From the IMG/VR virus record IMGVR_UViG_3300025030_000068, positions 1-64,000 of that record: DNA of 64,000 nt; one strand, written 5' to 3'. Below are positions 1,025 through 43,830 of the stretch, one piece after another. Position 1 is the stretch's first letter, and each line of letters opens with the position of its first letter. The notes beneath the pieces are model-generated. The model was not told the DNA's origin and did no database searches. It saw only the letters and a program-made list of their open reading frames with translations. This DNA comes from a virus. Both the position numbers and the translations under genes were made by a program.

Positions 1025-1299
1025 TACTTTCCTCCTGTACGTGGTTTGATCAAAAAGAGGCGCAAGGCCAGTTCGGTATCTTCGATGGGGTTGTCCCTAT
1101 TGTCGCCCGGCCACCGCTGGCCAGAGGTCTTGTCTGGGTGCGGCAGGTGCCCGCTGTAGTCCGCCCGGACCGGGTTCTCGATGGCGATATCCCAATCGGT
1201 GTCGAGGGTGTCGTCTTCGAGCATCTCTTCCATGCCGTCGACGTCATTCGGGCCAGCCTTGTGCCCCTCGCAGGTTTCAAAGATCGTCCGTTTCTTCAT
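1024..1299 (-). CDS. Small acidic hypothetical protein
   Basis: 91-aa ORF overlapping the stop/start of both neighbours. Confidence 0.55.
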   Translation of the reverse strand: MKKRTIFETCEGHKAGPNDVDGMEEMLEDDTLDTDWDIAIENPVRADYSGHLPHPDKTSGQRWPGDNRDNPIEDTELALRLFLIKPRTGGK

Positions 1300-3221
1300 G
1301 CCGCTACCCTCTTTTCTGCAACGTATTTTTTGAGCCGACGCATGGTCGCCGCGTCACTCAGGTCAAGGCGTCCGCTCCAGTGGGTACCGAGGAGGAGTCC
1401 CTTGCCGAGTTCCTGCCCACCGTTCTTCATGTCGGCAATGTCCCACATCGTCTTCGGATCGTTCGAGGCGAGGATACGGCTGATGTGGCTGTGCATCTGT
1501 GCCGATATCTGGTTGACGTGGGTGGTGCGGTTCCCGGCGCGGACGTCCCGTGGTGCCCGCTTGAGTTCGTCGAGTCGATCCTTGATGCCCTCCTTGATGT
1601 TGCTCCAGTTCTTCGGCAAAAACCCGAAGCGTGCCCATGTGTAGCCGCCGACGTCGCAGTTGGCCGACACGTCAACGTGGGAGACGCCGAGGGCTTTATA
1701 GACGCCGAACGAGGCCCGGAACAGTCCCTTGGCACCGCCGTTGCCGGTGTCTCCTGCCGAAAAATAAGAGTGTGAGACCACGAGTTTGTCGTTCGTCTTG
1801 GTAAAATAACGGCTGATGCTGGTCCCGTCGTCTCCGGCGAACGAAACGTAAATGCTGTCATGTCCACTTGCTGCCATTTTGATCCCAAACTTGGTGGTGC
1901 CGCCGAAGTCGGCGATCATCGTCTTCGCCATTTGCAGCGCGGTCTCCTTGTCGACTCCCATGACGCTGTGAACAGCGGTGTCCGTGAGGGTGTCGACAAC
2001 CTCGGTGCGTCGGATGTTCTTGCCGATCTCCGCCTTGGCCTTAAACGTGTCCTCCCGCTCCAGCTTTGCCATAAGGCGAGCGGCTTCCCGGCGGATGCGG
2101 ACCATGTCTGCTGTCTGCACGTTTTGCCGAGCCCGCTGCGTTTCCGGCGTGTTCGGTACCCATGTGCCGGCTTGGTAGTTGCGGGCTTGCGTCTGCAACG
2201 TCGTGGGCTGGTCAAGATAACGGTTGGCGAGACGGTGGACTTCCGGATTCGGCCAAGGAGTGACGCGATCGTTGCTTCGTGTCCCTTCTCTGGTAACGGT
2301 CGTGCCGTCCAGTGGCACATTCGGACGCGGCACGAAGCCGAGTTGCGCTTCGGTCAGGTTCAGCGGGTTCGCCGAGTGCGGGACCGGATTGACCGGGAGG
2401 CGGCTCACAGGTGCCCGTGGTGCTCTGGGAGCACGGGGCGGTGCGGCTGAGGCAGATCGCGCCGGTTGCAGGCCCGTGTCGTTGGCGAGGTGGCGAATGT
2501 CGGTGATCTGGTCCGCCGGCAGTGTCGGTGCCCCTTCGGCCTGATGTCCCGGTATCGGCTGCCCGGCGATGTTGTAGCCGAAGTGCCGCAGCAGGGCTGC
2601 CCGGTAGTTGTCGGCTGCCGTGGTGTAGCCGTTGCTGCGGGTTGTCTGGATCGAGAGCAGCGCCTGCACCGGATCGGGGGCCGAGGTGGCGGCGGCGTGC
2701 AGCAGGTGGATCTTTCGCTGCGCCGAGAGCAGCGCCGAGTTCTGCATGTTGGAGGCGGTCAGCGTCGGCGGTACCGGGGCGGAGCCGAGGATGAGTTCGG
2801 GTTGATGGTTGGCAACAGCAGACTGCCCGGCGGCGCGGAGTGCCTGCTTGTAGTCATCGACGCGCTGGTAGTTGGTCCGGGTCCGTGACGTCGAGAAGTT
2901 GGCGATGCCATCGTAGTCGCCGCGTTCAGCCATGAGGCGCAACTGATTAACCCGCCGGGTGCAGCCGAGGTTAGACTCGCTGGTCTCCGGGAAGCGTGGC
3001 TGCGAGACCCGGCGCATGGCTGCGGCCATTGCGACCTTGGCCTGCTCCCGCGTGATCGATCCTTCTGTCGGGCCGGCCTGTGCTGATCCGACGCGGACCC
3101 AGCGGTGGACCTGATGGCCATTGACGTCGTTGACCATCCGCAGGACGTAGCCGGGGTGGTAGGCGCTGATCTGCGACTTAAAGAGGTCGTCTGGTGCCGG
3201 TCTGCGGCGGAGGAGGTACAT
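1296..3221 (-). CDS. Putative internal virion/polyvalent protein with C-terminal GNAT-like acetyltransferase domain
   Basis: N-terminal DDLFKS; two internal helical repeats; C-terminal GDTGNGGAKGLF...VDVSANCDVGGYTWARFGF resembles the GNAT acetyl-CoA loop and C-terminal motif. Confidence 0.6.
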   Translation of the reverse strand: MYLLRRRPAPDDLFKSQISAYHPGYVLRMVNDVNGHQVHRWVRVGSAQAGPTEGSITREQAKVAMAAAMRRVSQPRFPETSESNLGCTRRVNQLRLMAERGDYDGIANFSTSRTRTNYQRVDDYKQALRAAGQSAVANHQPELILGSAPVPPTLTASNMQNSALLSAQRKIHLLHAAATSAPDPVQALLSIQTTRSNGYTTAADNYRAALLRHFGYNIAGQPIPGHQAEGAPTLPADQITDIRHLANDTGLQPARSASAAPPRAPRAPRAPVSRLPVNPVPHSANPLNLTEAQLGFVPRPNVPLDGTTVTREGTRSNDRVTPWPNPEVHRLANRYLDQPTTLQTQARNYQAGTWVPNTPETQRARQNVQTADMVRIRREAARLMAKLEREDTFKAKAEIGKNIRRTEVVDTLTDTAVHSVMGVDKETALQMAKTMIADFGGTTKFGIKMAASGHDSIYVSFAGDDGTSISRYFTKTNDKLVVSHSYFSAGDTGNGGAKGLFRASFGVYKALGVSHVDVSANCDVGGYTWARFGFLPKNWSNIKEGIKDRLDELKRAPRDVRAGNRTTHVNQISAQMHSHISRILASNDPKTMWDIADMKNGGQELGKGLLLGTHWSGRLDLSDAATMRRLKKYVAEKRVAA

Positions 3222-3247
3222 GGGGGCTCCCTTGTGATGATAGGCGA

Positions 3248-3276
3248 AGTTTAACTTGTGTCGTTCCCTATATCAA
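3248..3276 (-). promoter_or_regulatory. sigma70-like promoter with overlapping operator
   Basis: Minus strand TTGATA-17 nt-TAAACT; the -35 box is embedded in TTGATATAGGGAAC. Confidence 0.65.
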
Positions 3277-3301
3277 TTTTTTTGCCTTATCGGTTAAACT
3301 A

Positions 3302-3340
3302 AAACCACCAGTTAAGGGCGGTTTCTTTTCTTTAGTGAAG
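3302..3340 (+). promoter_or_regulatory. Phage-specific promoter-like repeat, copy 1
   Basis: AAACCACCAGTTAAGGGCGGTTTCTTTTCTTTAGTGAAG, 29 nt upstream of the methylase ATG. Confidence 0.7.
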
Positions 3341-3369
3341 CGGTCACTTAACCGAAAAAGGGAGACTTT

Positions 3370-4566
3370 ATGCGCTACGGGAGCGTTTGTTCAGGAATAG
3401 AAGCGGCTACAGCGGCATGGCACCCGCTCGAATGGAAGCCAGTATTTTTCAGCGAGATCGAGCCGTTTCCCTGCGCCGTTCTTGCTCACCATTATCCGCA
3501 TGTGCCGAATCTTGGCGACATGACAAAATTCAAGGAGTGGCCGGATGCAATTATCGATGTTCTCGTTGGAGGAACCCCCTGTCAATCCTATTCAGTCGCA
3601 GGACTCAGAGCGGGACTGGGTGACCAGCGTGGCAACCTCATGCTTACCTATGTGGCGATTGCTCGGAAATATCGCCCCAAGTGGGTGGTCTGGGAGAACG
3701 TCCCCGGCGTCCTTTCAAGTAATGAGGGACGAGACTTTGGAAGCCTTCTGGGGCTGCTCACCGGACAGCACGTTGTCTGCCCCCCTACCGGATGGCAAAA
3801 CAGCGGAGTCGTGCCGGGGATCAAGGGGGCTTACGGCATCGCATGGAGAATCCTTGACGCTCAGTATTTCGGAGTGGCCCAAAGACGCCGCCGTGTGTTC
3901 GTTGTCGGATATCTTGGAGACTGGCGACGTGCCGCAGCGGTTCTTTTTGAGCGAGACAGCTTGTGCGGGAATTCTGCGCCGCGCAGAGAAAAGAGGGAAG
4001 AAGTTGCCGGAACTCTTGGCGCTCGCACTTCAGGGGGTGGCTTCCCTGGATCAGATGAAGCCATGAGCGGGTATGTGCAACCTGTGCATACGACAGGCGC
4101 CGGATTCTGGCAGGAGGGTTTCGGAACGCTCCGGGCACGGGAACAGGATAGCCACGAAAATCTGATCTGCATGTCCACCGGCCAAGCCGGAGCCGAGATA
4201 GGGATAGGGATAGGGACAACCCTCAACTGCAACCACGAAGCGCCCGTCGTATGCTTCGAGTCTCGTTTTGCGCGAAACGGTCGCGGTGCTCCAAGTGAGA
4301 TTTGTCCTCCTTTGAAGGCGGAGAATGGAGGGACGGGAAAGGGTGACGGTGCTCCGCTTGTCGCCTCAGCAGCGATGCAGGTACGCCGATTAATGCCCGT
4401 CGAGTGTGAAAGATTGCAGGGATTTCCCGACCACTTCACAAACATCCCCTGGCGCAAGAAGCCGGAGTCACCGGACGGGCCGCGATACAAGGCGTTGGGC
4501 AATAGTATGGCGGTGCCGTGTATGCGCTGGATCGGGGAGAGGATAGCATTGGTTGATTCGCTATAA
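3370..4566 (+). CDS. DNA (cytosine-5)-methyltransferase
   Basis: Motif I (SVCSGIEA), IV (GGTPCQSYS), VI (WENVPG), VIII (QRRRRVFVVG), IX (RRLMPVECERLQGFPD), X (YKALGNS). Confidence 0.95.
   Translation: MRYGSVCSGIEAATAAWHPLEWKPVFFSEIEPFPCAVLAHHYPHVPNLGDMTKFKEWPDAIIDVLVGGTPCQSYSVAGLRAGLGDQRGNLMLTYVAIARKYRPKWVVWENVPGVLSSNEGRDFGSLLGLLTGQHVVCPPTGWQNSGVVPGIKGAYGIAWRILDAQYFGVAQRRRRVFVVGYLGDWRRAAAVLFERDSLCGNSAPRREKREEVAGTLGARTSGGGFPGSDEAMSGYVQPVHTTGAGFWQEGFGTLRAREQDSHENLICMSTGQAGAEIGIGIGTTLNCNHEAPVVCFESRFARNGRGAPSEICPPLKAENGGTGKGDGAPLVASAAMQVRRLMPVECERLQGFPDHFTNIPWRKKPESPDGPRYKALGNSMAVPCMRWIGERIALVDSL
3545..4066 (+). CDS. Nested +1-frame ORF inside the C5-MTase (M.EcoHK31I beta-like second polypeptide)
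   Basis: Own RBS (AAGGAG 3532-3537, 7 nt before ATG); C-terminus CSLSDILETGDVPQRFFLSETACAGILRRAEKRGKKLP resembles the LxDILE...YxLS segment of C5-MTases. Confidence 0.65.
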   Translation: MQLSMFSLEEPPVNPIQSQDSERDWVTSVATSCLPMWRLLGNIAPSGWSGRTSPASFQVMRDETLEAFWGCSPDSTLSAPLPDGKTAESCRGSRGLTASHGESLTLSISEWPKDAAVCSLSDILETGDVPQRFFLSETACAGILRRAEKRGKKLPELLALALQGVASLDQMKP

Positions 4567-4570
4567 AATA

Positions 4571-4602
4571 AAGGCCGGGGCATTTCGCCTCGGCCTTTTT
4601 TT
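4571..4602. terminator. Bidirectional intrinsic terminator
   Basis: AAGGCCGGGGC-ATTTC-GCCTCGGCCTTTTTTT between convergent genes. Confidence 0.85.
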
Positions 4603-4603
4603 G

Positions 4604-6763
4604 TTACTTGTCGTCGGCCAGTTCGATATCGGCAAGCTGAACGACCGACGTCGGCTGGATCTTCATGTTGACCAAATGTCGGACCAAAACGCGGCCACCA
4701 TCGGGATCTTCGATAAGGACCATTCTCGCCTCGGCATCGCCCTTGTCGACGACCTCTTTAAACTTGACTACCATCCCCTCCTTTAGGTGGCTCTTTGGTT
4801 CAAGCGATCGCCGTGTCTCTCTTTCGTGCCGATCAAGCACCTCTTCAAGGTCATCTTGCAGGGGTTTCGGCCATGAAGCGTGTGCTTTAAACTTTCGGAT
4901 TTTCTCAATGGTTTTGAGGTAGGCTTTCGGTGTTGCGTAGTCGGGATGTGACACGTCAATCCCAAGCCCCCCACGGCCCTTCTTGTCGTGGTGCTCGTAG
5001 ACATCATGTAGCTGCTGAACCAGTTTGGCGTGCCGGTTGTCGTCATGTTCCTTGACCGCAGTCCCGTCCTTGCGGGTGTAAGCCTTGATATGACTCTTCA
5101 ACACCTCTTCCGCAATCCCCGTGCTCTTCTTCAGATCATCGATCTCTTTCATCTCGTTCCCCTTGGCAATGATAAGGTTCTTTCCTCTGCTGGTATTTAC
5201 CCACGTCCCCTTGCCATTGTCCAGCGACTTCGCCAGCTCACCGCAGGCCGTCAGCACTTGCCGACCGGCGATTCTCCGCAGCAGCAGGCCGGGGCCGACG
5301 ATCTTCACCGCTCCCTGCGACTTGATCATGTCGAGGTGGTCGGTCAGAGCCCGCAGGAACTCCCGGAACTCGTCGATGTTGCTCTTGCCCTTGAGGCGCT
5401 TGATGGCCGCGTCGTGGACCGGCTTGATCGCCTCATGGCTCCAGTTGCGTCCGGTCGGGTGCGCGATCTCCTTGCGCTTCATGGTGGCGGCGATATCGGC
5501 GGCGCTCTGGGGCTCGACGATGTTGCCGAGGCCGTACTTGCGGTTGAGCACCTCCTGCTCGACCGGCGTCAGGGTGCCGACCAGGCCGGCGATGGCGGCC
5601 TCCCGCTCTTGGATGCGGCGGAGTTGATGCTGCATGTCCGGGTCGAAGCTGTCGATCGCCGATTGATTCTCCCACCACGGCACCGCGTTGCCGCCGTCGG
5701 CCAGTTCGTCGGCGCCGTCCTCGTCCATGTACTGCATGCGCTCCTGGTGCGCCTTGCGCTCCTTCAGGGCAGCGACGACGGCATTGCGGCCTTCCTTGGT
5801 CGCGACCTTGAAGATGCGGCTGTCTTCGGCGTCACCTGTCAGGTAGTCCTCAAAATTGTCGATATCCACCTGTGATGCCGAGGAGAGTTCTCGCCGTAGT
5901 GCCAGCGTCGCGCCCATCATGTAGTCGCTGACCAGATCGTTGTACTCGAAGTTGTCGTCGCTCATGTAGACGCCATTGACGCGGCGGACATTCCCCGCCT
6001 GGATATAGTTGGACCCGGCCAGACCAGTGACGGTGCGACTCATCATCGACTGGAACTTGTCATTGGTGATGATCTCGCCTTCTGTCAACACGGTGGCAGC
6101 ACGGGCAGCCTCTGCTCGGCGGTTGTGCTCGGCGGCGGTCAGGCGGTTGGAGGTGCCGCCGGTATTCTCGTATTTGGTGTTCTTGACCCGCTTGGCTTCC
6201 CCTTCGGTCAGGATCGCTGAGGCGTGGACCGCGTGCATCGGGGCGGCGGCAGTCTTGCCGTCTGCGGCTCCCTGCACGACGTACATATTGCGGCCCAGCG
6301 GGCGGACGATGGTCCCCTTGCGCTGCCGGGTGATCCCTTCGTCCTTGACGTGGTAGCGGACCTTGTCGCCAGTTTCGAATTTTCCGGTACCGGGGGCGGC
6401 AGTGACAGCCTCATGTGCCGGGATGAAGACCTTGGCGGTCTTGGCCGCGTCCTTCAGCGTCTGGTGCTCGATGGCGAACTCTTTGCCGATCTGCGTTTTG
6501 CCGCTGGAGTGGGTCACCGTGACGTGGTAGTGGGTGGCGTCCTTGCCGGTCACCTTCAGCGCAAACTCTTTGCCGAGGCGCGACGGCATGCCTTCCGGGG
6601 TGGCGATGATCATCTCGGCGCCGGGGCTGATCTGCGTCTTGCTGCGCAGGTGGTCGCGTTTCGGCGTTTTTGCCTTCCAGCCGATCACCGAGACCTTGCC
6701 GCTGCGATTGTTGCGTGTGAAGGCGATATGGCCGCGATTGGTCTTAGGGGCGGTGTTCGGCAT
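4604..6763 (-). CDS. Multidomain putative virion protein containing a sigma70-like (region 2 + region 4) domain, KOW/SH3-like domains and an HVKxYTR tag
   Basis: YNDLVSDYMMGATLAL (cf. region 2.2 xDLxQEGxxGLxxA) and LTPVEQEVLNRKYGLG..EPQSAADIA...SHEAIKPVHDAAIKRLK (cf. region 4 LTxRExxVLxLRFGL..EPxTLxEIG...SRERVRQIExxALxKLR); also LKSHIKAYTRKDGTAVKEHDDNR. Confidence 0.7.
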   Translation of the reverse strand: MPNTAPKTNRGHIAFTRNNRSGKVSVIGWKAKTPKRDHLRSKTQISPGAEMIIATPEGMPSRLGKEFALKVTGKDATHYHVTVTHSSGKTQIGKEFAIEHQTLKDAAKTAKVFIPAHEAVTAAPGTGKFETGDKVRYHVKDEGITRQRKGTIVRPLGRNMYVVQGAADGKTAAAPMHAVHASAILTEGEAKRVKNTKYENTGGTSNRLTAAEHNRRAEAARAATVLTEGEIITNDKFQSMMSRTVTGLAGSNYIQAGNVRRVNGVYMSDDNFEYNDLVSDYMMGATLALRRELSSASQVDIDNFEDYLTGDAEDSRIFKVATKEGRNAVVAALKERKAHQERMQYMDEDGADELADGGNAVPWWENQSAIDSFDPDMQHQLRRIQEREAAIAGLVGTLTPVEQEVLNRKYGLGNIVEPQSAADIAATMKRKEIAHPTGRNWSHEAIKPVHDAAIKRLKGKSNIDEFREFLRALTDHLDMIKSQGAVKIVGPGLLLRRIAGRQVLTACGELAKSLDNGKGTWVNTSRGKNLIIAKGNEMKEIDDLKKSTGIAEEVLKSHIKAYTRKDGTAVKEHDDNRHAKLVQQLHDVYEHHDKKGRGGLGIDVSHPDYATPKAYLKTIEKIRKFKAHASWPKPLQDDLEEVLDRHERETRRSLEPKSHLKEGMVVKFKEVVDKGDAEARMVLIEDPDGGRVLVRHLVNMKIQPTSVVQLADIELADDK

Positions 6764-6794
6764 GGCGGAAACTCCTTGTGTTGATAATGGATGG

Positions 6795-6823
6795 ATTGTA
6801 TCTTTCCTTGTTTCCTATATCAA
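6795..6823 (-). promoter_or_regulatory. sigma70-like promoter/operator for the sigma-domain gene
   Basis: Minus strand TTGATA-TAGGAAACAAGGAAAGA(17)-TACAAT. Confidence 0.7.
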
Positions 6824-6834
6824 ATTATTTGCCC

Positions 6835-6873
6835 AAACCACCAGTTAAGGCGGGTTTCTTTTCTCTAGTGAAG
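6835..6873 (+). promoter_or_regulatory. Phage-specific promoter-like repeat, copy 2
   Basis: AAACCACCAGTTAAGGCGGGTTTCTTTTCTCTAGTGAAG followed by hairpins GAAGG-GACGAT-CCTTC and GCGCC-AGCG-GGCGC. Confidence 0.75.
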
Positions 6874-7008
6874 GGACGATCCTTCCACTTGACGAAGCGC
6901 CAGCGGGCGCACGGAACCGCCGGGTGGCCTGCCGGGGTTAAATCTCACGATCTCTTTTCCCGTGGTGCCGCGTCTGTCGCGGTATCGAAACTGAACTAGG
7001 GGGCTGCC

Positions 7009-7320
7009 ATGATTGCAAAAGTCTATTACCGTCGCTATGCCGCTTCCGAGCGCATGCTCTTTGCCGCCGATCCGAAACTCACTCTTGCCGATATCGCCTC
7101 CGAGCAGTTCGCTCTGGTCACTGATCTTCGCGCTGGCCGCCTTGAAGATATCTACCGGCATATGCAGGGCGAAGTCTGGTCACCGAACGGCGAGGCCCGC
7201 GACCTGATCCGCTCCCTCGGTCTTCATCATACTTCGATGTCCGTTGGCGATGTCGTCGTCGACGAGAACGGTACCGGCTGGCAGGTGGACGGCTGCGGCT
7301 TTGCGCGGGTAGGTGCGTGA
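7009..7320 (+). CDS. YodL-like domain protein
   Basis: LEDIY...HTSMSVGDVVV...WQVDGCGF matches the YodL-like pattern. Confidence 0.65.
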   Translation: MIAKVYYRRYAASERMLFAADPKLTLADIASEQFALVTDLRAGRLEDIYRHMQGEVWSPNGEARDLIRSLGLHHTSMSVGDVVVDENGTGWQVDGCGFARVGA

Positions 7321-7532
7321 TGACGACGACCTGCCATAACTGCGCTGCCACTTCCGACTCCATCGACGCGGCCATTGATGCCGGCTGGATTCCTTCGTAT
7401 TGGGAGGCGCTGCCGGCGCCAGAATCTGCCGACGGGCGCTGGACGGAGATCGACGGCCCGTTCTGCCCGGACTGTATTGGACTTCTGGGGCTGGTCTTTT
7501 GTGCCGATACCGGCGATTACGAAAAGCGCTAG
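7317..7532 (+). CDS. Small Zn-finger hypothetical protein
   Basis: CxxC...CxxC; coupled to the upstream gene. Confidence 0.55.
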   Translation: MMTTTCHNCAATSDSIDAAIDAGWIPSYWEALPAPESADGRWTEIDGPFCPDCIGLLGLVFCADTGDYEKR

Positions 7533-7690
7533 GAGGCCATCATGGAACACGTCTGCAACGGCTGCCTCGAATCCTTCTCCGCCAGTCTCTCCCGGTGTCC
7601 GCATTGCGGCAGCGACGATTGGGACTGCGTGGAGACGTCCGAACTTGAACTGCGCCGCTCCGGTGGCCTTGACTTTGATCTTTAAGGAGA

Positions 7691-7912
7691 TTGCCAGTGA
7701 CGCCAGAAGAGATTATCAAAAACATTGACGGGCGGGAATTCAGTAAGCAGCGCGAAATTCTGACGCGGATTATTGACTACGAATGCTACCGCCCAGATGC
7801 AGACGAACTTGAGTTTCTAGAGGGGCTCCGCAACCTGCTCGACACCGTTGCCGACTGTGCTGCGGACGATTATGGAATCCAGAGCCGCTATGGGAGTGAC
7901 TCTGACTGCTGA
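7691..7912 (+). CDS. Small acidic hypothetical protein
   Basis: RBS AAGGAG upstream; in operon. Confidence 0.5.
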   Translation: MPVTPEEIIKNIDGREFSKQREILTRIIDYECYRPDADELEFLEGLRNLLDTVADCAADDYGIQSRYGSDSDC

Positions 7913-8035
7913 TCTCCTGCGCCTGTATGCCCTTCGCATGCAGGCGCATTACTCGTTGCATCATTCCGCAATGCCCCTTCTCTTGATCCTTCTCCTTATC
8001 CTTATCCCTATCTTAAACCAAGAAAGGTACTCTCC

Positions 8036-8509
8036 ATGAAGATGCGACTCCGTCCTCGTTACTACTGCGACTTCTGCAAGAAGGCCAGTGGTTCCCCCTC
8101 GGCCATGAAGCGGCACGAGCAGGGCTGCACGGCAAATCCCGATCGCTTCTGTGGCCTCTGTGCCCGTGTCGGTGAAGAGCAGAAGCCTCTGGCGGATTTG
8201 GTTGCTGCGCTGGATTGTGGCGATGCAGCCGGGCTCAAAGCCGTTCGTGATCTCTCCGGGAATTGCCCGACCTGTATCCTTGCGGCGATTCGTGCATCTA
8301 AATTACAAACACCGGGGGAGATGGATAAATTTGAAAACGGCGAGGAACGGTGGATAGAGGGTTTCCACGTCGAGTTCGAGTTCCGCGACGAGTTGAAGTC
8401 GTGGTGGACGGACGTCAATAACTCCGAGCGCGAGTCTGGGTGCTATCCGGATCGTCTTCCCTCCTCCTCTGTTGAATTCCTGAAAGGTCTCATCGCCCAT
8501 GCTGAATAA
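8036..8509 (+). CDS. Cys-rich Zn-binding hypothetical protein
   Basis: YYCDFCKK...MKRHEQGC, plus two further CxxC. Confidence 0.65.
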   Translation: MKMRLRPRYYCDFCKKASGSPSAMKRHEQGCTANPDRFCGLCARVGEEQKPLADLVAALDCGDAAGLKAVRDLSGNCPTCILAAIRASKLQTPGEMDKFENGEERWIEGFHVEFEFRDELKSWWTDVNNSERESGCYPDRLPSSSVEFLKGLIAHAE

Positions 8510-10136
8510 TCCCAATTTCTACCCGACCCCTCCCCTGCTCGCGTCCCGCATGATCTCGAAGCTCAAAGGCCGGCCCAAGCGGGTGCTGGAGCCGTCCGCT
8601 GGCAAGGGCGATATCGTCAAGGCCATCGTCTCTCGCTTCTCGCATACCTCGCAGCCAGAGGTTTCCTGCATCGAGATCGACCCGGTGTTGCAGGCAACCC
8701 TGCGCGGCGACGGGCACCGGCTGATCGATACCGACTTCCTCGCCTACTCTGGAGCCGACAAGTTCGATGCAATTATCGCGAACCCTCCGTTCGACGCTGG
8801 CGACCTGCATCTTCTGAAAGCGATCGAGATCATGTATCGCGGCGAGATCGTCTTCCTGCTCAATGCCGAGACGCTGCGGAATCCGCATACCAATACCCGG
8901 AAGCTGCTGGCGCGGAAGCTGGAGGAGCTGGGCGCCTCCATCGAGTACCTGCCGAATCAGTTTGCCGGTGCCGAGCGGCGGACTGGCGTCGAGGTGGCGC
9001 TGATTCATATCCAGATCGACCAGTCCGTCTCCGATGATCTCTTTGCCGGAGTTGACGACTTCTCCGCCCGCTGTACCGAGAAGGTCGAGGAGAAGCACGA
9101 GCTGTCGACCGGGCGCACTCTGGAGGAGCTGGTCGCCGACTACAACGAGGTGGTCCGCGTCGGCACCGAGACCGTCGTCGCCTTCTATCGCAACTTCAAG
9201 AAAGTCGGCGGCTTCCTGCGCATGACTGATGCCGTCGAGAAGCTACGGATTTCGTCGTCGTCGGATGTGACCGGCATGATGCAGGACGCGGTCAATAAAC
9301 TGCTGATCGATGTCCGTGCCTGCTTCTGGCGGAAGACGCTGGACTTGAAGGAGGTCCGCAATCGTCTGACGACCAAGAAGGCTGCCGAGTTTGAACATGC
9401 TATGGCCGATCGCTGCTACATGGATTTCACTGAGTCGAACGTGCGCCAGTTCGTGCTGAACCTCATGGACTCCTACGAGCAGACGCTGACCGACGCCATC
9501 GTCGATATCTTCGACCTCTTCACGGTGCGGCATTGCTGGGGCGAGAGCGGCGTCCTTGAGAAAAACGTGCATTATTTTAACGGCTGGAAGACGAACAAGT
9601 CCTTCAAGGTGGGCCGGCGCGTCGTCGTGCCGATCCGGGGCGGCTGCTGCTCGACGGCGTTCTTTGACTATGGCCGCTGGCAGCTGGCGTATCAGGCCAA
9701 GGACCAGTTGCGCGATATTGATCTGGTGGCGTCTTACTTCTCCGGGCTCCGGGATTACACCTCCGAGGCACCAAACGTGGCATTCAGCGCCAACAAGCAT
9801 TACCTGTCCATGTCGGCTGCGCTCATGGCGGCGTTCAGCGCTGGTTCGAAGGCCGATCGGCACTCTGGCATCGAGGCGGGGCACTTCACCGTGACCGTCC
9901 ACAAGAAGGGGACCATCCATATCACCTTCAACGACGAGGACGTGCTGCGGCGCTTCAACTTCATTGCCTGTCGTGGCAAGGGCTGGCTGCCGTGCGACTA
10001 CGGCAAGAAGCGCTATCAGGAGCTGTCGGCACCGGAGAGGGCGGTCGTGGACGCCTTTGAGGGCGAGCGGTCCTATACCGCTGCGCTGGGGCGCCCGGTC
10101 TTTGCTCCCTCGGCGCTGTTGCAGATCGCGGCGTAA
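8499..10136 (+). CDS. Class I SAM-dependent (N6-adenine-type) DNA methyltransferase with DUF4942-like C-terminus
   Basis: FYPTP, VLEPSAGKG, IIANPPF motifs; C-terminal HKKGTIHITF typical of this family. Confidence 0.85.
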   Translation: MLNNPNFYPTPPLLASRMISKLKGRPKRVLEPSAGKGDIVKAIVSRFSHTSQPEVSCIEIDPVLQATLRGDGHRLIDTDFLAYSGADKFDAIIANPPFDAGDLHLLKAIEIMYRGEIVFLLNAETLRNPHTNTRKLLARKLEELGASIEYLPNQFAGAERRTGVEVALIHIQIDQSVSDDLFAGVDDFSARCTEKVEEKHELSTGRTLEELVADYNEVVRVGTETVVAFYRNFKKVGGFLRMTDAVEKLRISSSSDVTGMMQDAVNKLLIDVRACFWRKTLDLKEVRNRLTTKKAAEFEHAMADRCYMDFTESNVRQFVLNLMDSYEQTLTDAIVDIFDLFTVRHCWGESGVLEKNVHYFNGWKTNKSFKVGRRVVVPIRGGCCSTAFFDYGRWQLAYQAKDQLRDIDLVASYFSGLRDYTSEAPNVAFSANKHYLSMSAALMAAFSAGSKADRHSGIEAGHFTVTVHKKGTIHITFNDEDVLRRFNFIACRGKGWLPCDYGKKRYQELSAPERAVVDAFEGERSYTAALGRPVFAPSALLQIAA

Positions 10137-10142
10137 TTCCGG

Positions 10143-10171
10143 TTGCTTCCGTCTCTCCCTTTTGATACTAT
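10143..10171 (+). promoter_or_regulatory. Possible sigma70 promoter followed by an operator-like site at 10188-10201
   Basis: TTGCTT-17 nt-TACTAT; GTCCCCTATGTCGA downstream overlaps the next start codon. Confidence 0.45.
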
Positions 10172-10400
10172 CTCAAACCTTGGAGGTGTCCCCTATGTCG
10201 AATCTCTCCGCTTCTCGCCACCGGCCCGCGACCGCTGATCTCGTTCAGCGCGACCGGGTGATTGTTTATTCCTCTTCCTCCTCCCCGGTGTTCCATCTGG
10301 GGGGAGGTTTTTCTGCCGAACAGGCCGACGATATTAGCGACTACTGCGGGGCGCATCTGCTTTCGGCTGCCGAGTTCGTCGATATCGTGACTGGAGGTGT

Positions 10401-10628
10401 GTGATGGACTACGAAGGAAGGCTTTACGGTAAGCTGCGCGGTGTCTGCATTCCTCTTGTGCAGACCACGGAAGACATTGAAAAATTACAGAGGGACCGGG
10501 ACGAGTTGCTTGCGGCTCTGGAGCGTGTTGTCGAATACCATGTTCCTAAAATTAACCCTCTGTCCGATGCCGTGATCTTGTCTGCCCGTGCCGTCATCGA
10601 CAAGATGGTAATTAAGGAGGTCGCATGA
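10401..10628 (+). CDS. Hypothetical protein
   Basis: Coupled ORF with RBS GGAGG. Confidence 0.55.
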   Translation: MMDYEGRLYGKLRGVCIPLVQTTEDIEKLQRDRDELLAALERVVEYHVPKINPLSDAVILSARAVIDKMVIKEVA

Positions 10629-10924
10629 AACGTCAAGAATTTATCGATGCCGTGACCGATGCCGGCTGGGTGCCTCGCAATGACGCGCAATTCGCACGGA
10701 TCGGGTTTCTCTGGAAGGAACTGTTTCCGAAGGATGCCGAGATTGAGCATCTTTCTGATGTGGAAGACCGTGCGATTGAACTGCAACGGCAACGCGACCA
10801 TTTGATGTTGGCGCTGAAACCGTTCGCCGTTTTCGCGTGCGAGGTCGCTCCAGGTGAGGATGCTTGCAGCTGTCATAACTGTCGGGCAAAGTATGTTATT
10901 GCCAAGATCAAGGAGGACGCATGA
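10625..10924 (+). CDS. Hypothetical protein
   Basis: ATGA-coupled ORF with RBS AAGGAGG. Confidence 0.55.
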   Translation: MKRQEFIDAVTDAGWVPRNDAQFARIGFLWKELFPKDAEIEHLSDVEDRAIELQRQRDHLMLALKPFAVFACEVAPGEDACSCHNCRAKYVIAKIKEDA

Positions 10925-11301
10925 AGATCACCTCCCGCGTCCTCACCGATGCCGTCCTGGCCGCCAACCAGTCTGTTCTTGCCGATTACCCTTCCGGGCT
11001 GCGCGTCGTCGGTCCTGACGGCAACGGCCTCTATTCGATGCAACTGATCCCGCGCAAGACCGGGGCGCATCCGCCGGTCATCCTTTGCTACAGCCCGCCG
11101 CGTGAGGCATACGTCGCGATGCAGGCGGTGCTGGCTGCGCTGCCGGTGGTCCGGGGGATCGCCGATAATCTCTTGTCCTGCGCTGCTGTTCGTCTTGCCG
11201 ATGTCGCCCGGCGCCCGGAAGGGTGGACGAAGGCCGAGCATGACCGTTCTCTTGATGCCGCTGTTGGTTCGGTGCGGTTCCTGACGGGAGGTGTCCCATG
11301 A
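10921..11301 (+). CDS. Hypothetical protein
   Basis: ATGA-coupled ORF with RBS AGGAGG. Confidence 0.6.
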   Translation: MKITSRVLTDAVLAANQSVLADYPSGLRVVGPDGNGLYSMQLIPRKTGAHPPVILCYSPPREAYVAMQAVLAALPVVRGIADNLLSCAAVRLADVARRPEGWTKAEHDRSLDAAVGSVRFLTGGVP

Positions 11302-11633
11302 TCGCCGGGCATCGAGCATATCTGTCAGGCCCCATGACGAATATTTCCGATTTCAACCGCCCACAGTTCTTCCTGGCTGAGTCGCTCCTCCTCGCCTCCG
11401 GTGCCGCCTCGGTCTTCAACCCGGCCCGGCATCCCGACGGCCTGACGTGGGAGGAGTATATGGCGCTGGATATCGCCGGTATGCACGATTGCACTGCCTT
11501 CGTTCGCCTGCCGGGGTGGGAGGCGTCCCGTGGCGCCCGGATCGAGAACGCTCTGGCTGCCGATCGGGGCCTGCTGGTCCTCGACTTGCCTCCTTGTGTC
11601 CTGAGTGTTCCCTTTATCAAAACCACCAGTTAG
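11298..11633 (+). CDS. DUF4406-family (nucleoside deoxyribosyltransferase-like fold) protein
   Basis: YLSGPMT..DFNRPQF...VFNPA...WEEYM...LPGWEASRGARIE. Confidence 0.8.
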   Translation: MIAGHRAYLSGPMTNISDFNRPQFFLAESLLLASGAASVFNPARHPDGLTWEEYMALDIAGMHDCTAFVRLPGWEASRGARIENALAADRGLLVLDLPPCVLSVPFIKTTS

Positions 11634-11658
11634 TGCGGGTTTCTTTTCTCTATTGAAG
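11620..11658 (+). promoter_or_regulatory. Phage-specific promoter-like repeat, copy 3 (abutting operator 11607-11620)
   Basis: GTGTTCCCTTTATCA-AAACCACCAGTTAGTGCGGGTTTCTTTTCTCTATTGAAG. Confidence 0.75.
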
Positions 11659-11709
11659 AGGCTGATCTCTCCCACTAACTGATGCGCCAGCAGGCGCTTG
11701 GAGGTTCCC

Positions 11710-12141
11710 ATGTTTAATGCCAAAGCGTTCTATCTTCGCCAACTCCGTTCAACCGTCGACGCGCTGGCTCTGGCCAAGGAGGAGGCTGCCGTCGAGATCG
11801 CCAAAGACCCGATCCACTTCATGAGCTGGGGCGGCAACGTCTCGTTCGTCGATGCCGGTGGCCACAAGTGTAGCTGCAACGTCGTCGTGCAGGCGTTCAA
11901 GGCCCGCATCGCTATCTCCCTTCTGGACGCCGAGGCTAATGGCAATCTCATTGAGTCCGCCAAGCTCCTGCGCGAGCGGATGATCGACACGCAGCTGCGC
12001 TTCTCCGGCGGCACGTCAACCAGCGCCTTCTCGAATGCCGTGGATATGCTGGAGGCGGATGCTCGCCGCGACCTGCTTTGCAACTTTGGACCGCTGACTG
12101 CCGAGGCGATTCGTTCGCTTGAAGAGGAGGTCGCCCCATGA
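11710..12141 (+). CDS. Hypothetical protein
   Basis: RBS GGAGG before ATG 11710. Confidence 0.6.
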   Translation: MFNAKAFYLRQLRSTVDALALAKEEAAVEIAKDPIHFMSWGGNVSFVDAGGHKCSCNVVVQAFKARIAISLLDAEANGNLIESAKLLRERMIDTQLRFSGGTSTSAFSNAVDMLEADARRDLLCNFGPLTAEAIRSLEEEVAP

Positions 12142-12452
12142 AAGGTCTTATCTGCTCCATCATGAAAGCCAAGGACTTCCCCGACTGCTCCTGCGACGGC
12201 GTGTCGTCCCGGTTCGCGCAGGTCACTCTCTGCGGTCCCGATATCGAAGGCGTCTTTGAGCCGTCCCCGGACGCGCCGGAGGTCAACCTCGTGAAACGCA
12301 ATCTGTTCCGGGATGAAATCTATGTCCATGCCCGGCCCGCCGAAATTCCCGCCGGCACTCACTCTGCGATGGGTGGCTGCTTCATCTGGTCGTGCGATGC
12401 CCGCTTTCCGTCGTCGCAGCCGATCCCGCTTCACGACCGAGTCGAAAATTAA
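12138..12452 (+). CDS. Phage hypothetical protein
   Basis: DCSxxGVSSRF...MGGCFIWSCDARF...PIPLHDRVE; coupled ORF. Confidence 0.65.
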   Translation: MKGLICSIMKAKDFPDCSCDGVSSRFAQVTLCGPDIEGVFEPSPDAPEVNLVKRNLFRDEIYVHARPAEIPAGTHSAMGGCFIWSCDARFPSSQPIPLHDRVEN

Positions 12453-12466
12453 TTCTGGAGGAAGTT

Positions 12467-13111
12467 ATGGAGTTCATGTCGTTTACAGAGCAAAGGCTTT
12501 CGAGGTCTGGAAAGAGACGGCTTCGTTATGGGCTTTTTAGGTGTCCACGGTGCGGCGAGGTTAGCGAGAAGATGGTCAGTGATGGGAAGAAACAAAAGAC
12601 TTGCGGTTGCTTGAAGCAGTTCATGGTGTCTCATGGGCATGCGCTTGTGCCTGGGACAAAAAAACAGACCCCTCTTTTCCAAGTCTGGAGCGCGATGAAG
12701 TCTCGCTGTTATTCTCCTGCAAATGTTTATTTTCGCAGGTACGGTGGACGTGGAATTTATATCTGCTCTGAATGGCTCAATAGCCCGGCATCCTTCTTCC
12801 TCTGGTGTGAATCTAATGGATGGGAAAAGGGATTACATATAGACCGAATCGATAATGACGGTCCCTATGGTCCCGAAAATTGTCAGTTCATTTCATGCCG
12901 AGACAATAACCGCAAAAGATCGTCCGTGAAGCTTACAGTGGTAGACGCCATTAAAATTCGCAAGCTTCGCAGCGAGGGCATTTCATGTAAAAGGCTGAGT
13001 AATGATTATAACGTTTGCTCCTCTACCATAAACGCAGTGGTGAGTAATAGAACATGGAAAATTAACGACACTGATCTGGAGGTACCCACATGCAATCCCA
13101 CTACGCGATAA
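12467..13111 (+). CDS. HNH homing-endonuclease-like protein
   Basis: TCGC, WSAMKSRC, YGGRGIYIC, IDRIDNDGPYGPENC; lower GC than neighbours. Confidence 0.85.
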   Translation: MEFMSFTEQRLSRSGKRRLRYGLFRCPRCGEVSEKMVSDGKKQKTCGCLKQFMVSHGHALVPGTKKQTPLFQVWSAMKSRCYSPANVYFRRYGGRGIYICSEWLNSPASFFLWCESNGWEKGLHIDRIDNDGPYGPENCQFISCRDNNRKRSSVKLTVVDAIKIRKLRSEGISCKRLSNDYNVCSSTINAVVSNRTWKINDTDLEVPTCNPTTR

Positions 13112-13437
13112 ACGTCTCCCGCAACGGTAAGTTCTTCTTCCGGACCGGCACCGAAATCGTCTCGCCCGATGTCGCCGAGGAGGTTGTCACCGAGTTGCGG
13201 CGGTGCCTCCTCCCTGTCGACGGCTTTGTCGTCACCTGCCACCACTGGACGTGCTCCGGGCATGTGTATATGCCGGCTACCGCAGAGCCGGAGCATTCGG
13301 TCACTGGTCCCCTGATCGCCCGGTGCCCGTCCTGCGCTTCCCGCTGCATCATGTCGCCGAACGATCCTCTCTTTGTCTGCGCTGAGTGCGGCGTGGAGTT
13401 CTCTGTCGCTGTTCTCAGCATCAAGGAGGGTTTATGA
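13090..13437 (+). CDS. Hypothetical protein with C-terminal Zn ribbon
   Basis: CPSC...CAECG. Confidence 0.55.
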   Translation: MQSHYAINVSRNGKFFFRTGTEIVSPDVAEEVVTELRRCLLPVDGFVVTCHHWTCSGHVYMPATAEPEHSVTGPLIARCPSCASRCIMSPNDPLFVCAECGVEFSVAVLSIKEGL

Positions 13438-13739
13438 GTAAGCCATCTGGCGAGTTCGCTGTCTCTCCCCTGTCTCGCGAGGCATTTGTTGAGACCTATG
13501 GCGACAATACCGTCTTCACCGAGGACTGGACTGGTCCCCGCTTCCGCTACGGCTACCGCAATCGTCCGTTCGCCCTGTGCCACCAACCGCGCGGCTGGAT
13601 AATCGGTGGAATCGATAGCGACTTCCGCGACCCCGTGGCCGGCGTTCGGCATGGATGTGTCGACTACCCTTTTGAGCTGACCGCTGACGAGGTCTATTCG
13701 TTCGAGCTGGTCTTTCTTGGCGAGGTGTCCATCCCGTAG
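13434..13739 (+). CDS. Stand-alone DarA C-terminal-like domain protein
   Basis: FRYGYRNRPFALCHQPRG...RHGCVDYPFELTADEVYSFELV matches the DarA_C pattern (YxxxxRPxxxGxxPxG...YGxxxYxxxLTxxExxxYEL). Confidence 0.6.
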   Translation: MSKPSGEFAVSPLSREAFVETYGDNTVFTEDWTGPRFRYGYRNRPFALCHQPRGWIIGGIDSDFRDPVAGVRHGCVDYPFELTADEVYSFELVFLGEVSIP

Positions 13740-13866
13740 TTTTTTCCTGTGTTTGCTCTCCTTTTGTCACCACCTTTTGTGATATCATCGCGCCCGGCCA
13801 CTTGTGCCGGGCCTTCCCTCTCAGTGCCCCTGCGGCCTCTTCCTTTCCCCTGCCAAGGAGTTTCCC

Positions 13867-14649
13867 ATGTCTGCCTGCCCGTCCTGCCAAGCTACCGTCA
13901 AGAAAGGTTCCAGTTTTTGCCGCTACTGTGGCCACCAGCTCCCGGTGGTCGTCGGCGTGTCCTATCCCTACGGCATCCGGTTCCCGTCAGCTTTCGGCGA
14001 TGCTGCTGTCGTTGCTCTGGCTCGCACCGCTCCAAGGTATTCTCTCGACGTTTCCCTTGCTGGAGTATTCCATGTTGCCCTCTACGACCGCCTGACGCTT
14101 CCGCAGCTGGCCGATCTCCACCGGGCGGCGTTCCTTGCCTTGCCTCGCGGCTCCATCATGCATACCGTCGACGGCAGGACGTTTTTCGGCGGTTCCTCGT
14201 TCTGGGCCTGCATGTCCCGGCGGCTGAATGAGGAGGGAGTCTTCGGCGGCGAGGTCGAGCACTGGTCCGCTCGCTGCCATTCCTTTTTCGGCTGCATCTC
14301 GTCACAGAAGCGGCAGCATGCGATGTATCACCGCGAGGGCTGGGAGGTCTTCTATCCGGGCCGGCATGGGCGCTTCGCCGACTCCGTGAGCGGTGGCGAG
14401 GCGAACCCTTGCCCGGAGGTAGATGCGGGTCGCCACCAGTTCTTCTACCCGGACCGGGCGAAGATTCAGGCCGAGGTGCTGCAGCTGGCGAAGCGCTCTG
14501 GCTGCAACCGGTGCCCGATGTTCTCCCCGGCGTATCTGGCGCAGCAGATGAAGAAGATCCCGCTCGTGCTGGAGTTCGGCGTGACTCCGGATTGCGGCTG
14601 GTTCCGCTGTCAGCTGCATGGCGATGCGGCGTGGTTGCGGGTTTATTGA
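13867..14649 (+). CDS. Zinc-ribbon domain protein
   Basis: MSACPSCQATVKKGSSFCRYCG; RBS AAGGAG. Confidence 0.65.
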   Translation: MSACPSCQATVKKGSSFCRYCGHQLPVVVGVSYPYGIRFPSAFGDAAVVALARTAPRYSLDVSLAGVFHVALYDRLTLPQLADLHRAAFLALPRGSIMHTVDGRTFFGGSSFWACMSRRLNEEGVFGGEVEHWSARCHSFFGCISSQKRQHAMYHREGWEVFYPGRHGRFADSVSGGEANPCPEVDAGRHQFFYPDRAKIQAEVLQLAKRSGCNRCPMFSPAYLAQQMKKIPLVLEFGVTPDCGWFRCQLHGDAAWLRVY

Positions 14650-14665
14650 CTAAGGAGATTGTGCG

Positions 14666-14923
14666 ATGAAACTTGGTATTGGTTCTCTTGAGACTTGTAA
14701 CGAGACGGGGATTGTGACCTTCGATTGTGGCTGCCGGTTCAATCCTGAAACGCATGAGGTTTGGCCGTCGTCATCGTGTCGACCCTCTCCACGGCAAGAG
14801 TCCGTGGAGAGGCACGAGGATGGGTCTTCTAAGTATGTTCGCGAGGCTCGCTCTGCTCGGCACTCGATGGATGTGAGCTATTATTTTTGGCGTGCTCAAG
14901 AGATCATTGATGCTTCAGGTTAA
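14666..14923 (+). CDS. Hypothetical protein
   Basis: RBS TAAGGAG. Confidence 0.55.
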   Translation: MKLGIGSLETCNETGIVTFDCGCRFNPETHEVWPSSSCRPSPRQESVERHEDGSSKYVREARSARHSMDVSYYFWRAQEIIDASG

Positions 14924-14961
14924 AACCACCAGTTAACGCGGGTTTCTTTTCTCTATTGAAG
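14923..14961 (+). promoter_or_regulatory. Phage-specific promoter-like repeat, copy 4
   Basis: AAACCACCAGTTAACGCGGGTTTCTTTTCTCTATTGAAG plus hairpins GAAGG-GATGAT-CCTTC and GCCCC-AGCG-GGGGC. Confidence 0.75.
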
Positions 14962-15009
14962 GGATGATCCTTCCGAATTCAGATGCCCCAGCGGGGGCCG
15001 GAGGTTGCT

Positions 15010-15240
15010 ATGTTGACGACGGAGAAGATTTGCACCGGCCAGTTTCGTGTTTGCTGGAACGGCGCGGCTACCGAATGGACGATCATTAACGGCTGTGCCG
15101 GTGTCAGTGGGCGCGATTCTGCCAACCACTACGGCGTGCTGAAGGATGGGAGTACTTCTCCTCGCTGGATCGGTTCTCTGATTGCCTGCAAGAAATCGCT
15201 GGCGTTAACGTTTCGAAACGCGGACAAGGTGAAGCCTTGA
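15010..15240 (+). CDS. Hypothetical protein
   Basis: RBS GGAGG before ATG 15010. Confidence 0.55.
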   Translation: MLTTEKICTGQFRVCWNGAATEWTIINGCAGVSGRDSANHYGVLKDGSTSPRWIGSLIACKKSLALTFRNADKVKP

Positions 15241-15566
15241 AAGGTAACACCTACGCTGTCGTCATCCGAATTGAGACAATCAGGAAGCGCCTCACCGACG
15301 GTGGGGCGCTAAACTGCGGCGATATTGCCGCTCTCTTCGACGTCTCGCTGAAGACAGCCCAGCGCGACATTGAGTTCCTTCGCTCGTTTTACGGCCTCAC
15401 CATTGACTATGACGCGAGTCGTCGCGCACTGTACTTGGCTGCTCCTGCCCCACCTTATCCGCCTCCGCTGGACAGCGATGTATCTTCTTCTGTCCGTGGT
15501 CGGTATCCGAAAAAGCCGGAGCGCAATGCTCCGGCCTTTTTTGCGTTTTTTACTTATTTTTCGTAA
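15237..15566 (+). CDS. Winged-HTH protein resembling the N-terminus of WYL/PafB regulators, lacking the WYL domain
   Basis: IAALFDVSLKTAQRDIEFLRSFYGLTIDYDASRRALYL. Confidence 0.6.
   Translation: MKGNTYAVVIRIETIRKRLTDGGALNCGDIAALFDVSLKTAQRDIEFLRSFYGLTIDYDASRRALYLAAPAPPYPPPLDSDVSSSVRGRYPKKPERNAPAFFAFFTYFS
15510..15542. terminator. Bidirectional intrinsic terminator
   Basis: AAAAAGCCGGAGC-GCAAT-GCTCCGGCCTTTTTT at the convergence of operons. Confidence 0.8.
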
Positions 15567-33075: not shown

Positions 33076-33076
33076 G

Positions 33077-35777: not shown

Positions 35778-35816
35778 AAACCACCAGTTAGCGTCGGTTT
35801 CTTTTCATGATTGAGC
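35778..35816 (+). promoter_or_regulatory. Phage-specific promoter-like repeat, copy 5 (abutting operator 35765-35778)
   Basis: GTGTTCCCCATATCG-AAACCACCAGTTAGCGTCGGTTTCTTTTCATGATTGAGC. Confidence 0.7.
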
Positions 35817-35850
35817 AGCTTTGTCTGCCAACACCCCACAGGAGGTTCCT

Positions 35851-36219: not shown

Positions 36220-36222
36220 CCG

Positions 36223-37460: not shown

Positions 37461-37499
37461 AAACCACCAGTTAACGTCGGCTTCTTTTCCCCTGTGAAG
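37461..37499 (+). promoter_or_regulatory. Phage-specific promoter-like repeat, copy 6
   Basis: AAACCACCAGTTAACGTCGGCTTCTTTTCCCCTGTGAAG. Confidence 0.7.
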
Positions 37500-43791: not shown

Positions 43792-43830
43792 AAACCACCA
43801 CTTAAGCGCGGTTTCTTTTCCTATATGAAG
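43792..43830 (+). promoter_or_regulatory. Phage-specific promoter-like repeat, copy 7
   Basis: AAACCACCACTTAAGCGCGGTTTCTTTTCCTATATGAAG plus hairpins AGGGAC-GGCT-GTCCCT and TGCC-TGCG-GGCA. Confidence 0.75.

Follow-up and report, generated by a model that had tools for sequence, protein, structure and literature searches.

The first 64 kb (positions 1 to 64,000; the window) of the 89,928-bp IMG/VR virus record IMGVR_UViG_3300025030_000068 encode P0001, a 719-residue modular protein that carries a module resembling the sigma70 initiation factors of bacterial RNA polymerase (RNAP). The module is real, in its homology and in its fold, and, judged from sequence and predicted structure, appears to be a strongly diverged sigma70-family member, closest to the primary sigma factor RpoD and running from region 2.1 to the C-terminus. 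The best explanation of P0001 is that it is a late, head-associated phage protein of the polyvalent type; the whole chain of inference, at the end of which stands a capsid-delivered adaptor that would dock on the host core RNAP, is in our judgment about equally likely to prove right or wrong. The same genome carries a repeated plus-strand DNA element that a preliminary description of this DNA had taken for the private promoters of the sigma-like protein; the element is real, and its pairing with the protein is not supported by two related, module-bearing phages.

The P0001 gene is a one-gene unit with its own promoter and a terminator-like hairpin. Its product strings together a barrel, the sigma module, a linker, a helical part and a KOW-like barrel, each with separate relatives; the core, residues ~124-478, is a Tudor/SH3-like barrel followed by the sigma70-derived module (sigma2 to sigma4). 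The unit is laid out as follows, in window coordinates:

6795..6823, minus strand (read 6823-6795): promoter of the P0001 gene, TTGATA-17 nt-TACAAT, with TTGATATAGGAAAC as its first 14 nt; 10 of 12 positions agree with the sigma70 consensus.
4604..6763, minus strand: coding sequence of the 719-residue modular protein P0001, from the list of open reading frames and their translations.
6395..6763, minus strand: N-terminal region, residues 1-123, beta-rich in a low-confidence model and matched only by the close relatives P0002-P0003.
6182..6394, minus strand: Tudor/SH3-like beta-barrel, residues ~124-194, with a pLDDT of 85-90 in an AlphaFold2 (AF2) model built with an alignment.
5699..6121, minus strand: sigma2-like region and sigma3-like helix, residues ~215-355, which hold the invariant residues of the family.
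5369..5641, minus strand: sigma4-like helix-turn-helix, residues ~375-465, with an insertion of ~12 residues in the turn and an RpoD-like C-terminal LRxFL tail.
5093..5329, minus strand: four hydrophobic-x-K-S motifs, residues 479-557, candidate prohead-protease sites.
5033..5098, minus strand: 25-residue linker, K-S-H-I-K-A-Y-T-R...E-H-D-D-N-R.
4613..4786, minus strand: C-terminal small KOW/SH3-like barrel, residues 660-717, with phmmer matches P0035-P0113.
4570..4598, no strand assigned: terminator-like hairpin with a 12-bp stem and a T-run, from a terminator scan.

The hairpin separates the P0001 gene from a convergent C5-methylase gene and may act on both strands, since an upstream AAA mirrors the T-run.

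A likeness to sigma70 regions 2 and 4 had been noticed in two peptides, located at residues ~274-289 (YNDLVSDYMMGATLAL) and ~398-460 (LTPVEQEVLNRKYGLG...), and profile, hhalign and fold searches agree on it, sigma2 preceding sigma4 as it does in sigma factors. Searched against the PDB with hmmsearch, a profile built from 31 family members hits only sigma factors, its top 43 matches all being to region 4 (best E 1.3e-4); over 401 alphaproteobacterial genomes, the same profile picks out the C-terminus of RpoD, the primary sigma of ~650-700 residues, in 47 at E<1e-5, and no true member of the family. Aligned by hhalign to 12 alphaproteobacterial RpoD sequences (probability 95.2%, E 2.5e-8, 212 columns), the module is collinear with RpoD from region 2.1 to region 4.2, the C-terminal LRxFL tail included; the E value for sigma4 ranged from 1e-4 to 2.5e-8 across runs, and with alignments of the extracytoplasmic function (ECF) and RpoH types sigma4 alone was aligned.

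Fold comparisons, which the preliminary description had proposed as a check, place sigma factors first in Foldseek, VIA and BFVD. They use an AF2 model from an alignment-based run (pLDDT 78); the single-sequence model, at pLDDT 36, was unusable. The top 39 Foldseek matches in the PDB are all sigma factors, over ~300 columns, at E 4e-3 to 6e-2. In VIA, model residues 123-376 are collinear with residues 369-612 of E. coli sigma70 at Z 9.0-9.6, a range in which helical folds can match through arrangement alone; individual superpositions include the sigma70 fragment 1sig_A (root-mean-square deviation, rmsd, of 2.2 over 73 residues), SigE sigma2 (8b3z_A, 80 of 80 residues aligned) and SigF sigma4 (8jzt_A, rmsd 1.4 over 57). 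Phage sigma factors are the top matches in the BFVD viral fold library, and in the ESM Atlas the closest cluster bears the name 'sigma-70 family' (score 0.93). The barrel ahead of the module resembles PWWP, Tudor and KOW domains at Z 8-9.8 in VIA, e.g., 5xfr_B with an rmsd of 1.1 over 50 residues.

Co-folding with the beta' clamp helices, another check put forward earlier, yields a predicted docking that passes its controls. The sigma2-like part was paired with Caulobacter beta' residues 225-345 and reached an ipSAE of 0.77 (0.78, 0.77 and 0.75 in three runs), the best of 3 controls giving 0.09; that mark is reached by 58 of 80 solved complexes and by 2 of 110 mismatched pairs. The runs have at least 87% of contacts in common, the pLDDT of the partner is at least 78, and the predicted contacts fall on beta' 257-321, i.e., the clamp helices. 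On the P0001 side they are made by a helix at residues 272-287, the very peptide that had been quoted as 'region 2'. Since sigma-beta' complexes have been solved many times, the pass may reflect likeness rather than binding.

An exhaustive phmmer search finds 111 relatives of P0001. About 65 of them cover residues ~120-500 (33 of those at E<=1e-10), and in relatives of 1,000-2,100 residues this part is the N-terminus; six such giants scanned with Pfam (among P0008-P0017) have SNF2, DdrB-ParB, LPD1 or InPase domains behind the module. Short relatives of 210-250 residues comprise the barrel and sigma2 alone. Residues 550-650 and 660-717 each have their own separate set of relatives, and the latter barrel also occurs as many free-standing phage proteins of 58-100 residues; its nearest named structures, taken as leads only, are NusG KOW, NdhS and DUF2158 (Atlas TM 0.8-0.9 by target). 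Close relatives of P0001 are 85-87% identical to it through residue ~593 and then diverge, as is expected of swappable cargo, an observation that we count toward a packaging context; C-terminal cargo seems to have been exchanged at the linker between near-identical phages. The point of divergence lies just past the linker (window 4604-4984 against G001:C1:27185-28969).

The module-bearing proteins make up an unannotated family of ~65 cluster representatives. As a single sequence, P0001 matches nothing in Pfam, PHROGs or PDB sequences (the last by phmmer). A giant relative compared with GenBank phages is matched in its ParB part alone, and searches of genome contigs with P0001 find no relative, nor do P0012 and P0010 find one in viral contigs. 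One relative, WP_149309061.1, is encoded by a prophage of Oryzomonas rubra, a bacterium available in culture, and this brings virion proteomics within reach.

The case for head association begins with the position of the gene: it lies on the late strand, with the portal-P0007-P0006 genes to one side and those for the protease (genome 83491-84387), scaffold and major capsid protein (MCP) to the other. Portal, terminase, protease, MCP and sheath genes surround it on its own strand, which bears out the earlier placement of the 719-residue protein within a head-gene cluster, and its promoter is of the type that serves the portal, terminase, protease and baseplate operons. A 237-residue acidic scaffold-like protein encoded outside the window (genome 82758-83471; L004:5758-6471) has 13 regularly spaced hydrophobic-x-K-[S/A] motifs, against 1.55 in shuffles (0 of 2000 reach 13), and the same motif stands at residues 9-12 of the MCP; given this enrichment and the MCP N-terminus, the motif is probably the prohead protease site, and the scaffold points to a protease that would cut after Lys. 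The corresponding motifs of P0001 (MIKS at 479, LAKS at 510, LKKS at 544 and VLKS at 554) all lie within 75 residues (479-557), right after the sigma module (p~0.004), with none in residues 1-478.

The last K-S site of P0001 opens the 25-residue linker (K-S-H-[VI]-K-x-Y-T-R...E-H-D-D), which recurs once in the 718-residue protein P0006 (16397-16462) and twice in the 479-residue P0007 (18398-18475, 18749-18826), both portal-adjacent, and in many giant relatives borders the barrel-sigma module at one end or at both. In a wider form, phi-x-K-[SA]-H-[VI]-x-x-[YH]-x-R...G..V...H-[ED]-D, it parts domains in many polyvalent proteins (relatives P0008-P0032); in the proteins scanned, the linker stretch has no Pfam match. 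It had been described as an HVKxYTR tag common to P0001 and MuF: the peptide is indeed found in the 718- and 479-residue proteins, and the MuF identity is not confirmed, as the 718-residue protein gives no Phage_Mu_F match (Pfam, E 0.01) and no PHROG, only its position after the portal fitting MuF/SPP1 gp7. The linker may be a protease site joined to a docking or packaging tag, and, together with the protease-type sites, its presence in portal-adjacent proteins and at the bounds of the module leads us to infer packaging into the head. That it starts with a protease-type site suggests how the polyproteins get cut into working parts.

Put together, P0001 would be taken into the prohead, whose protease would cleave it after K481, K512, K546 or K556, in the hydrophobic-x-K|S sites that directly follow the sigma module, releasing an N-terminal piece of ~480 residues to exit the capsid together with the DNA. 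Once inside the cell, this piece would dock through its sigma2-like domain on the beta' clamp helices of the host core RNAP, and a small number of such molecules could suffice to recruit polymerase to the incoming genome; in the giants, ParB-like, SNF2 or pyrophosphatase domains could be tethered to the polymerase through the module. This proposed role would be family-wide and independent of the element, which has 8 copies in this genome.

Several observations weigh against this reading and the sigma assignment at its base. The curated Pfam models Sigma70_r2 and Sigma70_r4 do not match P0001 at E 0.1, and a six-frame search of the genome with curated sigma models gives none at E 10. The sigma2 part is backed by its fold and by a low-confidence alignment register only. 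Y430, W433 and W434 of E. coli sigma70, in regions 2.3/2.4, take part in melting and reading the -10 element; the hhalign register, of low confidence here, puts an invariant Tyr at residue 281 on the Y430 column and small residues on the W433/W434 columns, so that in this register the region 2.3 tryptophan pair seems to have been replaced. Membership in the sigma family is also counter-indicated by the ~12-residue insertion in the turn of the helix-turn-helix and by the distribution of conservation, with the invariant columns in the sigma2-like part and variable residues in the recognition helix. To region 2.2, hhalign aligns a segment other than the contact helix of the co-folded model (residues 272-287), hence the docking pose is not established as canonical. 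Searches by tblastn with P0001, the module alone and a 396-residue relative find nothing in GenBank phages or PLSDB plasmids. Finally, the K-S motif is short; the four xxKS motifs of the preliminary description are all present and clustered without being enriched (shuffles give 3.2 against the 4 observed).

The promoter of the P0001 gene contains a second repeat. The 14-mer TTGAYATAGGGAAC has 20 matches in the genome against 2.3 expected, in the window at 3263, 6810, 20690, 23275, 33345, 63906 and others, and outside it at 66925, 72840, 72972 and 84671. The first 6 nt of the 14-mer form the -35 box in sigma70-type promoters whose spacer is 17 nt; the repeat overlaps this box in about a dozen such promoters, which precede the portal, terminase, protease and baseplate operons and the P0001 gene. 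The sigma70 promoter earlier ascribed to the P0001 gene is thus upheld, by its agreement with the consensus and by the 14-mer within it. Sister phages have the same promoter layout with another 8-mer (TGCGCTAC or TACGCTAC), as would fit an immunity-specific operator. Dispersed repressor sites are found in other temperate phages, e.g., the C1 operators of P1 and the stoperators of mycobacteriophage L5; the 14-mer, a candidate operator, resembles these in being scattered over the -35 boxes of promoters, and differs in what it tells, since it bears on gene control and not on the P0001 protein itself.

The plus-strand element has the consensus AAACCACCAGTTA-N5-GGTTTCTTTTC-N5-TGAAG. The window holds 7 copies against 0 expected, and an eighth lies outside it, at 84707:

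3302..3340, plus strand: element copy upstream of the C5 DNA methylase gene.
6835..6873, plus strand: element copy 12 nt from the -35 box of the P0001 gene's promoter, back-to-back with it.
11620..11658, plus strand: element copy.
14923..14961, plus strand: element copy.
35778..35816, plus strand: element copy upstream of an operon that ends with SSB.
37461..37499, plus strand: element copy upstream of genes for a replication initiator and the DnaB helicase.
43792..43830, plus strand: element copy upstream of exonuclease and SbcCD genes.

Every copy sits between genes on the plus strand and precedes an operon with Shine-Dalgarno sites, and 5 are back-to-back with a minus-strand 14-mer promoter. 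Two earlier claims are thereby confirmed: that a repeated non-sigma70 element heads the plus-strand operons, and that one copy (6835) faces away from the promoter of the P0001 gene (6823-6795). A sigma70 consensus scan, which recovers the 14-mer promoters, finds no promoter at the four copies within 3000-15500. Directly after each copy comes a hairpin whose stems differ among copies yet stay paired, suggesting transcripts that start at about TGAAG; these hairpins were read by eye, as RNAalifold on 21 copies gave no useful consensus (their lengths differ). A promoter is the best reading of the element. The sister lineage (G404 and G405), which has most genes in common with this virus and a module 34-41% identical, carries a clear homologue, and across the 21 copies in four records only CCAGTT-N6-GG-N2-TCTTTTC-N5-TG is invariant. 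The AAACCA box, a would-be -35 at 17-nt spacing, is not kept in the sister lineage, and CCAGTT lies just 10 nt from TCTTTTC, which is not the geometry of a sigma70-type promoter. Two other identities were rejected: an intrinsic terminator (conservation is limited to 5 bp, AAACC/GGTTT, and changes in the 5-nt centre are not compensated) and a sigma54, sigma32, EcfG or sigma28 promoter (none of these consensus sequences appears to fit).

That the element belongs to the sigma-like protein is a different matter. In this alternative, the freed fragment of ~480 residues, ejected with the genome, would be a true promoter-specific sigma factor: it would form holoenzyme and start transcription at private CCAGTT...TCTTTTC...TGAAG promoters, i.e., the 8 element copies, turning on the methylase, replication and recombination operons at DNA entry, and also after induction, once its own repressible promoter fires. 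If true, transcription of the methylase and replication operons would start ahead of all phage protein synthesis, and the module of the giants would carry enzymes to the polymerase. We consider this improbable. It is favoured by the element itself, which is one-stranded, intergenic, not sigma70-like and set before operons with ribosome-binding sites, and by the variable yet paired hairpins that suggest a transcript start behind it. The six-frame search found no other sigma factor in the 90-kb genome, Pfam found no other transcription factor in the proteins scanned besides an HTH_31 repressor-like protein and a weak HTH_17 match, and a T7-type polymerase model gave no match, but its control detected nothing either. 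Moreover, the element abuts the promoter of the sigma gene both here and in the sister lineage, and all four records that have the element and a head-gene region encode the module (4 of 4; G002, G408 and G409, with the element and without the head region, are uninformative on this point). These four, however, are syntenic relatives that share most genes, and their co-occurrence is not independent. In G406 (91% complete) and G407 (100% complete), whose MCPs are 63% identical to that of this virus, a giant protein opens with the module and its gene follows a 14-mer promoter of the kind seen here, yet the element is absent, and no second repeated element is found in them by self-BLAST or non-coding 8-mer enrichment, both of which recover the element in this genome. 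The module is thus broader than the element, and shared ancestry explains their co-occurrence. The recognition-helix positions of sigma4 vary across the family, and the unconserved would-be -35 box and the CCAGTT-TCTTTTC distance also speak against this alternative. The pairing of protein and element is therefore not upheld, and the comparison across related phages, suggested as its check, turned out against it in two near-complete, module-bearing relatives. Genes found only in the element-bearing lineages, and not in G406 or G407, lie at 13804-14649, 35821-36942 and 43227-43631 of the window and at genome 85261-85464; among them are a zinc-ribbon protein and a 67-residue protein that is 70% identical between lineages. 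Any of these may encode an element-specific factor distinct from the sigma-like protein.

The remaining alternatives leave the element aside. P0001 could stay in the cytoplasm, made from its own promoter as an ordinary sigma-like regulator or a competitor of the host sigma, its extra domains being accessory; we hold this to be quite unlikely. The arrangement as a one-gene unit, with a strong promoter of the sigma70 type and a terminator to itself, would suit such a protein, phages often encode sigma factors, which lead the viral fold search, and the relatives of 210-250 residues make do with barrel and sigma2; by contrast, a module that heads giants with DdrB-ParB, SNF2, LPD1 or InPase domains, a linker shared with portal-adjacent proteins, scaffold-type K-S sites at domain borders and a gene on the late strand among head genes all argue for packaging. 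Very unlikely, in our view, is that the sigma likeness is a relic and the module, off RNAP altogether, is a DNA-binding or purely structural internal head protein. The very diverged sequence without a Pfam match, the 12-residue insertion and Z-scores at which helical folds match by arrangement alone would agree with a relic, but the most conserved columns are in the sigma2-like part rather than in the DNA-reading helix, the alignment is collinear over regions 2.1-4.2 including the RpoD tail, and the docking prediction passes its controls. A capsid-delivered adaptor for host core RNAP is the reading that we prefer.

The virus is, on the evidence of its sequence, a temperate myovirus. The record is rated 100% complete by CheckV, and its two ends overlap each other; the DNA comes from groundwater metagenomes, all DNA runs that contain the virus being groundwater or hydrocarbon metagenomes, and the closest relatives of the terminase are from Alphaproteobacteria such as Inquilinus (43-54% identity). 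The minus strand carries the genes for small and large terminase, portal, head protease, major head protein, sheath and baseplate, broken up by plus-strand islands of methylase, replication and recombination genes. Other genes of the window include:

1296-3221: 641-residue protein of unknown function, a neighbour in the head cluster, with its own 14-mer promoter.
32701-33150: weak HTH_17 match (Pfam).
33352-34551: integrase.
34865-35467: helix-turn-helix repressor-like gene, HTH_31 (Pfam).

The only domain match of the 641-residue protein, which has a counterpart of 45% identity in G407, is a faint one to a sheath domain (E 0.06). The DNA methyltransferase genes number four (window 3370-4566, 8499-10136 and 26350-27855; genome 86566-87396), of the C5, DUF4942-type N6, ParB-fused and N6_N4 types; at least the C5 and DUF4942-type genes are downstream of element copies (at 3302 and 6835).

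Three groups of known systems bear comparison with P0001. Sigma70 factors share with it the collinear sigma2-sigma3-sigma4 fold, sequence homology in region 4, including the GLG motif and the C-terminal LRxFL tail, and, as far as co-folding predicts, docking on the beta' clamp helices. Phages are known to encode members of this family, e.g., T4 gp55 and SPO1 gp28. P0001 differs from sigma70 factors in that it falls below every curated Pfam threshold, has ~12 extra residues in its helix-turn-helix and lacks evident region 2.3 tryptophans; in that its module is set between a Tudor-like barrel and linkers with cargo domains; and in that the module is encoded among head genes and forms the N-terminus of proteins of 1,000-2,100 residues in relatives.

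Polyvalent proteins of phages and conjugative elements, such as DdrB and DarB of phage P1, have been proposed to be packaged and injected, and SNF2, DdrB-ParB, LPD1 and InPase domains are their hallmarks (Iyer et al., 2017; PMC5512222). P0001 resembles them in joining many unrelated domains in one chain, in its late-gene setting and in having relatives with precisely these domains; by analogy, processing and delivery with the DNA would be expected for it as well. In P1 DdrB and other GenBank phages only the ParB part is matched, not the sigma module, and domains of the P0001 type are joined by a repeated 25-residue linker that starts with a protease-type K-S site, which sets them apart from the polyvalent proteins described. 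The paper that defined these proteins (PMC5512222) does not mention sigma, Tudor or SH3, and the sigma-like module does not appear in Pfam, PHROGs, GenBank phages or the literature searched; the novelty would lie in a sigma70-family protein used as a module of polyvalent proteins. To these poorly understood giants, the module gives a concrete predicted target, the beta' clamp helices.

Whole RNAPs are carried in the capsids of N4 and of phiKZ-like phages, and T4 carries a polymerase-modifying enzyme, Alt. The virion RNAP of N4 and T4 Alt are transcription tools delivered with the virion (PMC4496689; PMC5512222), and their likeness to P0001 would be one of concept, a protein brought along in the capsid that works on transcription during DNA entry. 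The literature searched describes no sigma-like adaptor for the host core enzyme that is borne in the capsid. N4 brings a complete single-subunit polymerase and T4 Alt is an ADP-ribosyltransferase; P0001, by contrast, would be a sigma-like adaptor for the core enzyme of the host.

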